This document shows, one piece after another, positions 41,292-42,644 of a DNA stretch of 46,907 nt (position 1 is the first letter of the stretch; each line of letters starts with the position of its first letter). The notes under the pieces were generated by a model. It worked only from the letters and a program-made list of their open reading frames with translations. It was not told the DNA's origin and did no database searches. The position numbers and the translations under genes are program-made. The stretch is from a virus (Duplodnaviria > Heunggongvirae > Uroviricota > Caudoviricetes), in IMG/VR virus record IMGVR_UViG_2651869724_000014, one strand, 5' to 3'.

Positions 41292-41930
41292 ATGAAAATG
41301 CAAACATTTAAAGATGTATTTATAGAACTTGGTGATAAGTCAATAATAGATTTTATTTCTAAGGTTACTGATAACGTTAAATCCTATTGGAGTCGATCAT
41401 ATGAAAGTGAGGAAAACTCAAAATATTTAGGCGAAATTGCTTTTAGCTTTAAAAGGTCAGGTGATAACAGATTACCTGATGCTGGTCTAAGTATTTTCCA
41501 GAAAGAAAATAATATTTGGTATATTCCTAATGTTGTACCTTTAGAAAAAGGACAGCTAAACTACGATGAATATAATACAATAATCACGGATTTTTATAAC
41601 TCGTGCTTAAAACCAGTTGCACTTGAGTTAAAAATTGATATTAAAATAACCTCGGATTCCTTAACTGCAGAAGATGTTGTAGGGGTTTACGCAGGAAAAC
41701 TATTAAAACAATTTTCATCTTTAGCGAATAAATCAACAGGAAGTTCACATCCAAATGATCAAGAAAGATGGTTTGCATTTATTGTAGAAACATGTAAAAA
41801 AGATAAATATGTGAATACTTCTGATCTTGTCCGAGTATTATGTGAACAAGGCTGGAGTGAAGATTCAGCACATAAGCTAGTTATAGAGTATGAGTTTGCA
41901 AGGGACTTAATCACGTACATGGAGCAATGA
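41292..41930 (+). CDS. Hypothetical protein, first gene of a two-gene pair
   Basis: 212-aa ORF, stop 4 bp before next start. Confidence 0.35.
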   Translation: MKMQTFKDVFIELGDKSIIDFISKVTDNVKSYWSRSYESEENSKYLGEIAFSFKRSGDNRLPDAGLSIFQKENNIWYIPNVVPLEKGQLNYDEYNTIITDFYNSCLKPVALELKIDIKITSDSLTAEDVVGVYAGKLLKQFSSLANKSTGSSHPNDQERWFAFIVETCKKDKYVNTSDLVRVLCEQGWSEDSAHKLVIEYEFARDLITYMEQ

Positions 41931-41933
41931 ATC

Positions 41934-42644
41934 ATGTATTTATCAATAAGCAAAGTTAAAGATGAATTGTTGAAAGATGAACAACCAGTATTCTTCTTTG
42001 ATACGTGTTCAATATTAGATATATTAAATTCTATCCATTTACATGGATTGTCAGACTCTTATGCAAACAACATGCTTGAACTTATCAAAATTAACGGTAC
42101 GTCTTGTTGGTTAGTTTCCTGCCAAAACGTTAACGAGGAGTGGATTGATAATATTGATGCTGTTCTTTCCACTATGGATAAAGAAATAAAAAAACTAGAT
42201 CGTAGTATAAGTTCGACAATTAACGTGACCAACTTAGTCTTAAATACAAATTATTCTATGCCACCGAAATTTTCAGGCCTCAATATATCTAGTAAAATAA
42301 AGTCCTTATCAGAACATTTTCTAAAATCTTGTCAGTGTATTGAAAGGACTAATGATCATACGCTGAAAGCAATGCAAAGAGTTCGAAAACTTGAAGCACC
42401 AGCAAGGAAAGGAAAACTTGAGCCAAAAGATTGTGAAATTGTTGAATGCTTTTTAGAATTCTGTCAAGAACTAAGGAAGGCAGGTTTTAATGAAAAAATA
42501 ATATTCGTTACTGCAAATAAAGAAGATTTTGGCTCATACAATGCTCTAAAACCACCACTTGATATTCAATTTGCATCTCATCAAGCACTATTAATCAATA
42601 GTGTAGAACATGTACTTGCACTAGCGAAAAGACAGATAAAATAA
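41934..42644 (+). CDS. PIN-like domain protein (putative nuclease)
   Basis: N-terminal FFFDTCSILDILN plus later acidic positions (DCEIVE, VTANKEDF) resemble PIN catalytic residues. Confidence 0.35.
   Translation: MYLSISKVKDELLKDEQPVFFFDTCSILDILNSIHLHGLSDSYANNMLELIKINGTSCWLVSCQNVNEEWIDNIDAVLSTMDKEIKKLDRSISSTINVTNLVLNTNYSMPPKFSGLNISSKIKSLSEHFLKSCQCIERTNDHTLKAMQRVRKLEAPARKGKLEPKDCEIVECFLEFCQELRKAGFNEKIIFVTANKEDFGSYNALKPPLDIQFASHQALLINSVEHVLALAKRQIK

Follow-up and report, generated by a model that had tools for sequence, protein, structure and literature searches.

Is the tightly linked gene pair described here a toxin-antitoxin (TA) module, an anti-phage system or something else? The pair lies within a 46,907-nucleotide stretch of DNA catalogued as IMG/VR record IMGVR_UViG_2651869724_000014 (hereafter the window), which is an Escherichia coli chromosomal island at tRNA-Asn. 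The upstream gene, A, encodes a protein of 210 residues and is followed on the same strand by gene B, which encodes a protein of 236 residues. An original prediction, made from the sequence alone, had described a PIN-like protein preceded by a protein with no recognisable domain and had suggested either a TA or an abortive-infection module. We find that A represents a large family coupled across phyla to a short PIN_12 protein, and we consider the chances about even that the pair is a self-contained, horizontally mobile two-component anti-phage module of the abortive-infection type.

A and B are linked across phyla

A search with the A motif, using one genome per species, identified 137 relatives, and 80 of these loci were fetched and examined; being anchored on A, the search is blind to loci that have lost A. 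A full-length PIN_12-like gene was located directly 3' of A at 68 of the 80 loci. B was truncated or partial at five others, two of them at contig ends, and absent from the remaining seven, one at a contig end and one with a truncated A. Among the hosts are Gamma-, Beta- and Alphaproteobacteria, Geobacteraceae, Verrucomicrobia, Planctomycetes, Acidobacteria, Armatimonadetes and a Desulfofundulus (Firmicutes), and the distant B partners of A still match PIN_12. When metagenome loci were searched in the reverse direction via B, A was found directly upstream in 8 of 9 cases, the ninth having only 115 nt of upstream sequence. Across 87 pairs the junctions between the two genes are mostly -4, -1 or +2 to +5 nt. 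Because both proteins have many homologues and synteny is kept across phyla, the association is, as judged from these sequences, far beyond chance, and A and B appear to form a real, widely conserved operon that is predicted to be translationally coupled across phyla. The tight linkage proposed by the original prediction is thus conserved, and its 4 bp spacing is corrected to 3 nt in the window ('atc', between the TGA of A at 41928-41930 and the ATG of B at 41934).

An upstream partner gene that is translationally coupled to its neighbour favours the first alternative to be weighed, a classical type II TA operon of the VapBC kind. On this account B would be a constitutively toxic PIN RNase whose active site is blocked by A, probably through the basic loop of the C-terminal helical domain of A, and the pair would stabilise islands, integrons and integrative and conjugative elements (ICEs) by post-segregational killing, maybe with abortive infection as a by-product. 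We regard this explanation as rather unlikely, although it is a serious rival. Many loci retain an intact A beside a truncated B or with no B at all (L013, L055, L037, L080, L016, L020, L034 and L063), in keeping with a TA pair, whereas the relative conservation of the two proteins argues against one. For distant pairs, the mean identity to the window proteins is 37% for A and 30% for B, and A is the more similar of the two in 68 of 73 pairs, the reverse of the pattern that is usual for toxins and antitoxins.

Orphan copies of A that lack a downstream PIN gene were seen at L096 (5001-5654), L099 (2040-2681), L016, L020, L034 and L063. The copy at L096 resides inside a prophage tail module, where it could be a decoy, an anti-defence copy or a remnant; if an anti-toxin decoy, it would suit the TA account.

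B is a PIN_12 protein

Protein B scored 42.5 bits against the Pfam family PIN_12 (PF16289, formerly DUF4935; cut-off 32), with residues 21-199 aligned to profile positions 2-172 of 172, and a precomputed PF16289 match was present in 30 of 30 B homologues. The AlphaFold2 model, built with 28 homologues (mean pLDDT 89.7, pTM 0.85), shows an alternating strand-helix core interrupted by a long helical insert of about 70 residues (64-132, with helices at 64-102 and 113-132). When this model was compared with the PDB using Foldseek, the sole coherent group of matches consisted of VapC toxins (VapC2, VapC and VapC21; 3zvk, 6sd6, 5ecw, 5sv2 and others). The match to 3zvk had a Foldseek probability of 1.00 and the others mostly 0.75-1.0, with target-normalised TM-scores of 0.53-0.65; the large helical insert kept the E-values at 3e-3 or weaker. 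A profile of B searched against PDB sequences gave noise only. Scans of both proteins against NCBIfam and PHROGs returned no relevant match, and a scan against PADLOC-DB v2.0.0 returned no family for either at E up to 10.

Residue conservation was counted over 78 unique B and 77 unique A sequences taken from A-B pairs. The acidic residues expected at the PIN active site are retained almost throughout (Table 1), D198 at the fourth position being invariant within the close homologue set. Other conserved residues of B include T24 (77/78) and C25, D29, R149, C167 and E171 (each 78/78). The profile match, the fold and the conserved acidic residues together establish that B is a genuine PIN protein, in agreement with the original prediction. 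The FFFDTCSILD motif on which that prediction drew is not the beginning of the protein, which starts MYLSISKV; it occupies residues 20-29. The active site looks intact, and B is likely to be an active nuclease.

The solved folds nearest to B are those of VapC toxins, a point in favour of the TA explanation, and B shares with VapC the PIN fold and the acidic residues, just as the A-B pair shares with VapBC the partner-first order and the overlapping or adjacent junctions. The helical insert sets B apart from VapC, and further differences are found in A.

A is a conserved family without annotated relatives

The first gene had been described as having no recognisable domain, and this proved correct: searches gave no match for protein A in Pfam, NCBIfam, PADLOC or PHROGs, nor any in PDB sequences by profile at E up to 10, and Foldseek comparison of the A model with the PDB gave no significant match. 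Relatives are nonetheless abundant. A profile search of 1.84 billion representatives with A yielded 1,882 clusters with an E-value of at most 1e-3 and 726 with one of at most 1e-30, so that the family comprises about 1,900 clusters at 50% identity, nearly all of them stand-alone proteins of 206-233 aa. Two assignments were tried and rejected. Weak precomputed labels on some homologues place A in PF08986 (DUF1889), which hmmscan at E up to 10 did not reproduce, and the idea that A is a detached C-terminal portion of the long DUF4935 proteins was discarded when hhalign against one such protein, DS-5B (see below), returned a probability of 0.2%.

Protein A is divided into an N-terminal alpha/beta domain (approximately residues 1-120), whose predicted structure bears a KA1/TBP-like resemblance, and a C-terminal helical domain (residues 124-209). 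The most strongly conserved positions cluster in two polar patches, one formed by N78, P81, Y92, N93 and F99 and the other by the loop A143-W158, which follows the pattern ANKSTGxxHPxDxxRW. In this loop A143, N144, K145, S146, T147, H151, D154 and W158 are found in 77 of 77 unique sequences, P152 and R157 in 76, and G148 in 75. Two proteins of the A family, P0130 (323 aa) and P0131 (332 aa), carry a tandem duplication of the C-terminal ANKSTG helical domain, which suggests that this domain is an autonomous unit.

These properties do not resemble those of a VapB antitoxin. At 210 aa and with two domains, A is without a DNA-binding fold of the AbrB, RHH, HTH or Phd type, which counts against the TA explanation. 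They bear as well on a second alternative, that A and B constitute a heteromeric RNA-processing or RNA-targeting enzyme serving the mobile element, in inter-element competition or transcript control, with A as the substrate-recognition subunit and with no phage-triggered suicide. The KA1/TBP-like N-terminal domain is compatible with such a role, the KA1 domain of METTL16 having been solved in complex with U6 snRNA. Moreover, the polar patches (NxxP...YN and ANKSTGxxHPxDxxRW) would be more usual at a site that binds a ligand or nucleic acid than in an antidote under rapid evolution, and the module is always located on mobile elements. We nevertheless consider this alternative improbable.

Exchange of the downstream partner in Firmicutes

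A second class of partner was found in Firmicutes (Table 1). The Firmicutes-type A proteins are 214-232 aa in length, with an insertion in the C-terminal domain in most members, and are followed at -4 or +1 nt by a protein of 160-168 aa with an N-terminal hydrophobic helix. This protein gave no match to the B profile, and four examples show mutual identities of 28-47%. The pairs occur beside type I restriction-modification genes, beside a HEPN_Swt1 gene or as prophage morons, as in L097 and L098, where the pair lies between the capsid and head-tail genes.

The pairing of the A family with a non-PIN membrane protein argues against a dedicated VapBC-like antitoxin. Many defence systems, and likewise 'promiscuous' antitoxin families, combine a conserved upstream component with exchangeable downstream effectors. 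Panacea (PanA) is reportedly a 'hyperpromiscuous' antitoxin or partner domain of this kind, in which one upstream family occurs with unrelated downstream effectors. The A family is similar in being found with unrelated effectors, PIN_12 in most lineages and the small membrane protein in Firmicutes, but it differs in that A has no Pfam match, and so is not DUF4065/Panacea, and in that only two partner classes were seen here. It is possible, although we advance this tentatively, that A represents a new and widespread sensor or regulator family that switches interchangeable effectors (a PIN_12 RNase or, in Firmicutes, a single-pass membrane protein). Its polar pocket (N78, P81, Y92, N93 and ANKSTGxxHPxDxxRW) would then bind or act on a conserved small-molecule or nucleic-acid cue, making the pair a modular two-component immune system and not a TA system.

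Natural alleles of A and B

Five E. coli genomes carry an allele that is 89% identical to the window. Both genes are intact in E7476; in 4/1-1, E-1246, CP185933 and fS10a, gene A contains the nonsense change E83* (GAA to TAA), giving an 82-aa product. E83* is the sole difference from E7476 in 1,551 nt, and the promoter region and B are intact. The presence of this truncation next to an intact B in four different E. coli chromosomes fits poorly with A as an indispensable antidote. In this second allele the pair is followed by an opposite-strand adenylate/guanylate cyclase gene and a hypothetical gene (L083, which is 4/1-1, 10588-11939; L085, 7588-8939), two neighbours that might form a Pycsar-like defence pair within the same cargo slot.

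Enteropathogenic E. coli (EPEC) E2348/69 retains a remnant of a different type. A deletion between two GTATT microhomologies (L002 7990-8034, corresponding to window positions ~39300-41940) removed the 3' part of a 263-aa gene, DUF4756, H-NS, A, and the ATG and first codons of B. What is left is a B reading frame that could be started only at a TTG and that is fused to the truncated 263-aa gene. The joint loss of A and the ATG of B would be consistent with TA, and the deletion is compatible with either a defence or a TA model.

Damaged copies in E2348/69 and the 4/1-1 lineage also enter into a third alternative, that the pair in the window is silent, decaying cargo without current function. 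The DNA is AT-rich (~32% GC) and lies beside H-NS-family genes, and a 1-nt insertion is present in the spacer between the Shine-Dalgarno (SD) sequence and the start of A. However, both reading frames are full-length and all of the invariant residues are present. Protein A is identical to WP_001192882.1 as annotated in E. coli EC01, protein B is 99% identical to WP_000281391.1 from the same strain, and the exact A and B sequences occur on 199 and 51 contigs, respectively. We therefore judge that silent, decaying cargo is a very unlikely description of the pair.

Comparison with known PIN_12 systems

Both EC01 proteins are listed as 'Predicted novel defense gene' in Table S10 of the DefensePredictor study (Science 2026, PMC13092281), with log-odds of 10.17 for WP_000281391.1 and 6.29 for WP_001192882.1 and a strict threshold of 4. 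The same study describes DS-5 ('PN12'), a system validated against phage Bas60 that consists of WP_021513008.1 (166 aa) and WP_021513009.1 (376 aa). Mutants of the PIN active site lose defence, and deletion of the partner also abolishes defence without causing toxicity, from which the authors conclude that DS-5 is not a TA system (PMC13092281). DS-5 resembles the A-B pair in having a partner of unknown function upstream and a PIN_12 protein downstream (64.4 bits for DS-5B, 42.5 for B) and in belonging to the E. coli accessory genome, and its non-toxic partner deletion parallels the natural truncation of A beside an intact B. It differs in that DS-5A is a Cys-rich, DUF5830/AcrIF4-like protein of 166 aa, for which hhalign against the A profile gave a probability of 0.75%, and in that DS-5B, at 376 aa compared with 236 aa for B, has a long C-terminal region. 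No direct match between the B profile and DS-5B was obtained with hhalign, so that the two are related only at the level of the Pfam family. Profile comparisons detected no similarity between either DS-5 protein and A or B, so the pair is not DS-5 itself.

A second PIN_12 system, Cosus/Brc24, is a single-gene defence encoded on a mobile-integron cassette, and protection requires the PIN residues (bioRxiv 10.1101/2024.07.02.601719). Compared by description, Cosus shares with the pair the PIN_12 domain and the integron location, which A-B occupies in Vibrio cholerae, but it acts as a single gene whereas B is essentially always preceded by A. The absence of toxicity in DS-5 lacking its partner, and the fact that Cosus needs no partner, both argue against the TA explanation. 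Matelska et al. (2017; PMC5499597) had assigned DUF4935 to the VapC group of PIN domains, with no known function; the proteins that contain it measure ~350 aa and are as a rule monocistronic. B agrees with that description in its N-terminal VapC-group PIN domain and in the long helical insert after strand 2, but the B subfamily has a length of 236 aa, is devoid of the C-terminal region and forms a bicistronic unit with A.

Mobility and genomic setting

The pair occupies a segment that the backbone of this island family usually lacks. Similarity to E. coli 25DN (L109) ends at 40953 and resumes at 43177, and in 25DN the H-NS gene is followed almost immediately by DUF6404 and H-NST. Of 5,426 complete E. 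coli genomes, 683 possess the backbone DNA with DUF4756 and the H-NS paralogue, and only 10 possess the A-B DNA. Searches with blastn revealed 82% identity to Vibrio ICE and genomic island loci (L003, L089 and L092) over 41085-42649, 89% identity to E. coli 4/1-1 and E7476 over 41193-42730, and 76% identity to V. cholerae integron cassettes over 41295-42628. The pair adjoins the integron integrase of V. cholerae, beside rplT, as the first cassette; other strains carry it further within the array, one of them with ParE/Phd cassettes close by. In V. parahaemolyticus it is carried by a dusA-integrating conjugative element with TraN and TraG. Integron arrays with ParE/Phd cassettes and ICEs are typical sites for TA systems, and to this extent the distribution supports the TA explanation as well.

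No relatives of B were found in IMG/VR viral contigs, and A was detected in only 7 of 2.9 million of these contigs; it gave no match in 50,697 phage genomes and three matches in 72,556 plasmids. The pair is therefore essentially absent from sequenced phages and rare in viral contigs and plasmids. In 22 other species, the neighbours of the pair include GajA (E 1e-197), AriA, PtuA-like ATPases, SIR2_2, HipA, integrases and plasmid replication genes.

Sequence features of the window

The coordinates of the pair and of other features are collected in Table 1. The open reading frame listing gives two same-strand frames, 41292-41930 (212 aa) and 41934-42644 (236 aa), as the original prediction had stated. 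The first frame is longer than the conserved gene, which starts at 41298. RefSeq assigns 633 nt to gene A of EC01, and homologues are about 210 aa. An upstream alignment of four variants shows a conserved 'GGAGA-GAAAATG', and the 1-nt insertion in the SD-start spacer of the window creates an ATG at 41292, directly after AGGAG. The start of gene A is thus most likely the second ATG.

Two candidate promoters were noted upstream. For the putative sigma-70 promoter, TTGACC and a -10 element (GATTAT) are kept in the Vibrio olivae copy. The putative extended -10 element corresponds to TGcTATAAT in the 4/1-1 variant (89% identity), whereas V. olivae does not share it. A search for inverted repeats upstream of A gave only short, weak repeats and no operator-like palindrome, an absence that is not probative but that would run counter to a typical TA operon. 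Tandem-repeat and Rfam scans of 40900-43200 for an RNA antitoxin (type III, ToxIN-like) found no repeats and no Rfam match.

Table 1. Coordinates of the gene pair, its sequence features and its surroundings; positions refer to the window unless a locus is named.
Feature	Position	Strand	Remarks
Gene A	41298-41930	+	210 aa, partner protein of unknown family
Gene B	41934-42644	+	236 aa, predicted PIN_12 (formerly DUF4935) VapC-like nuclease
Invariant loop of A, residues 143-158, ANKSTGSSHPNDQERW	41724-41771	+	pattern ANKSTGxxHPxDxxRW
B D23, first catalytic acidic residue, in FFFDTCSILD	42000-42002	+	kept in 77/78
B E69, second catalytic acidic residue	42138-42140	+	kept in 78/78
B D166, third catalytic acidic residue, in EPKDCEIVE	42429-42431	+	kept in 78/78
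B N195 to D198 (TANKEDFG), fourth PIN active-site position	42516-42527	+	N195 in 77/78
Candidate sigma-70 promoter TTGACC-17 nt-GATCAT	41128-41156	+	consensus scan, 9/12 matches
Candidate extended -10 TGtTATAAT	41199-41207	+	inferred by sequence reading
Shine-Dalgarno AGGAG of gene A	41287-41291	+	sequence reading; GGAGA kept in other variants
Transferable module (upstream region, A, B, short 3' tail)	41085-42730	+	blastn
Segment of ~2.2 kb with module and small minus-strand ORF, absent from usual backbone	40954-43176		25DN comparison
H-NS paralogue, full-length	40545-40949		
Small ORF between B and H-NST	42875-43129	-	84 aa
H-NST-like gene	43167-43409	-	80-aa protein, H-NS N-terminal domain only
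Firmicutes A with 160-168-aa partner	L097 4995-6201; L098; L112 3501-4654; L113 3501-4687; L115 3501-4635		

The flanking H-NS paralogue and H-NST-like gene were found as originally predicted (Table 1). The small reading frame between B and H-NST lacks 159 nt (53 codons, in frame) at 42941/42942 when compared with EC01, in which the product is 133 aa; the 84-aa short form is shared with E2348/69.

Elsewhere in the island, an overlapping pair at 18889-20720 (minus strand) encodes a GmrSD_N/DUF262 protein (PADLOC NsnA 277 bits, PD-T4-2_A 148 bits) and a HEPN RiboL-PSP protein. It is positioned between integrases at 17488-18822 and 20922-22199, next to tRNA-Asn, and looks like a defence pair of known type in its own mini-island. 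At 30413-32878 (plus strand), an AAA_15/AAA_21 ATPase gene followed by a gene for an HNH protein matches the PADLOC candidate PDC-M62 A/B (Septu/PARIS-like) and is also present in EPEC E2348/69. A DUF4238 protein (Pfam 48.4 bits; no PADLOC match) is encoded at 34908-35963 on the minus strand; DUF4238 is a known single-gene defence domain (Rst_DUF4238). The region 23177-27485 contains an ATP-grasp (MvdD-like) gene and type IV pilus genes (PilS-like pilin and shufflon-type PilV), and homology to EC01 places a MobQ relaxase at 28835-30304, so the island looks like a mobilisable element with mating pilus parts of its own. The last ~100 nt of the window (46811-46907) match transposase DNA of the IS3 family (IS1203/IS629-like), which many E. 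coli plasmids carry.

A possible mode of action

In the anti-phage reading that we favour, B would serve as a metal-dependent PIN_12 (VapC-like) endonuclease effector, most probably cutting RNA and thereby shutting down translation. A would be an obligate partner that is co-translated with B and physically interacts with it, the KA1/TBP-like N-terminal domain and the helical C-terminal domain with its ANKSTGxxHPxDxxRW loop serving to control or direct the nuclease. The trigger might be, for example, an infection cue or a ligand sensed by A. As a controlling or sensing partner, A would not simply be a labile antidote.

The original prediction left the choice between TA and abortive infection open. 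Defence, or abortive infection, fits best, since the pair is mobile cargo with defence-type neighbours, both proteins are listed by DefensePredictor, and PIN_12 relatives have been validated in DS-5 and Cosus. A classical TA system is weakened by the size of A and its lack of a DNA-binding domain, its greater conservation relative to B, the change of partner in Firmicutes and the E83* allele.

Several considerations weigh on the opposite side. Partner-first order, tight coupling and a VapC-like fold are also typical of a type II TA operon, and orphan A is much commoner than orphan B, a pattern that is also expected of antitoxins. The E83* allele could be explained in other ways. RefSeq annotates a 107-aa reading frame from a TTG in this allele and, the C-terminal domain of A being apparently autonomous, a C-terminal fragment of A might still be made, which may neutralise B in these strains. 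Alternatively, H-NS silencing of DNA with 32% GC could make B harmless there. In E2348/69, loss of A together with the start of B is the outcome expected if B alone were harmful. The analysis of neighbouring genes is a descriptive scan rather than an enrichment statistic. The overall validation rate of DefensePredictor is 45% (PMC13092281), so its listing is a prediction and not proof, and we found no experimental work on the A-B pair in the literature, where it is only predicted.

Significance

The involvement of PIN_12 modules in phage defence has been published, both proteins figure on a published list of predictions, and B is an ordinary member of its Pfam family. What is new here is the A family with its invariant loop, which across phyla is almost always joined to a short PIN_12 nuclease, together with the membrane partner in Firmicutes, the mobility of the pair on integrons, ICEs and islands, and a natural null allele of A. 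Should the pair merely be a VapBC-like addiction module, it would be ordinary. A role for PIN_12 nucleases in phage defence is a recent discovery, made with Cosus and DS-5, and how these nucleases are controlled is poorly understood. If the pair is a defence system, A would provide a new sensor or regulator domain for bacterial immunity, and E. coli would offer a tractable example because natural knock-outs exist for comparison. For the H-NS/H-NST islands of pathogenic E. coli, the cargo slot holds a candidate defence system, of which EPEC E2348/69 keeps a crippled remnant.

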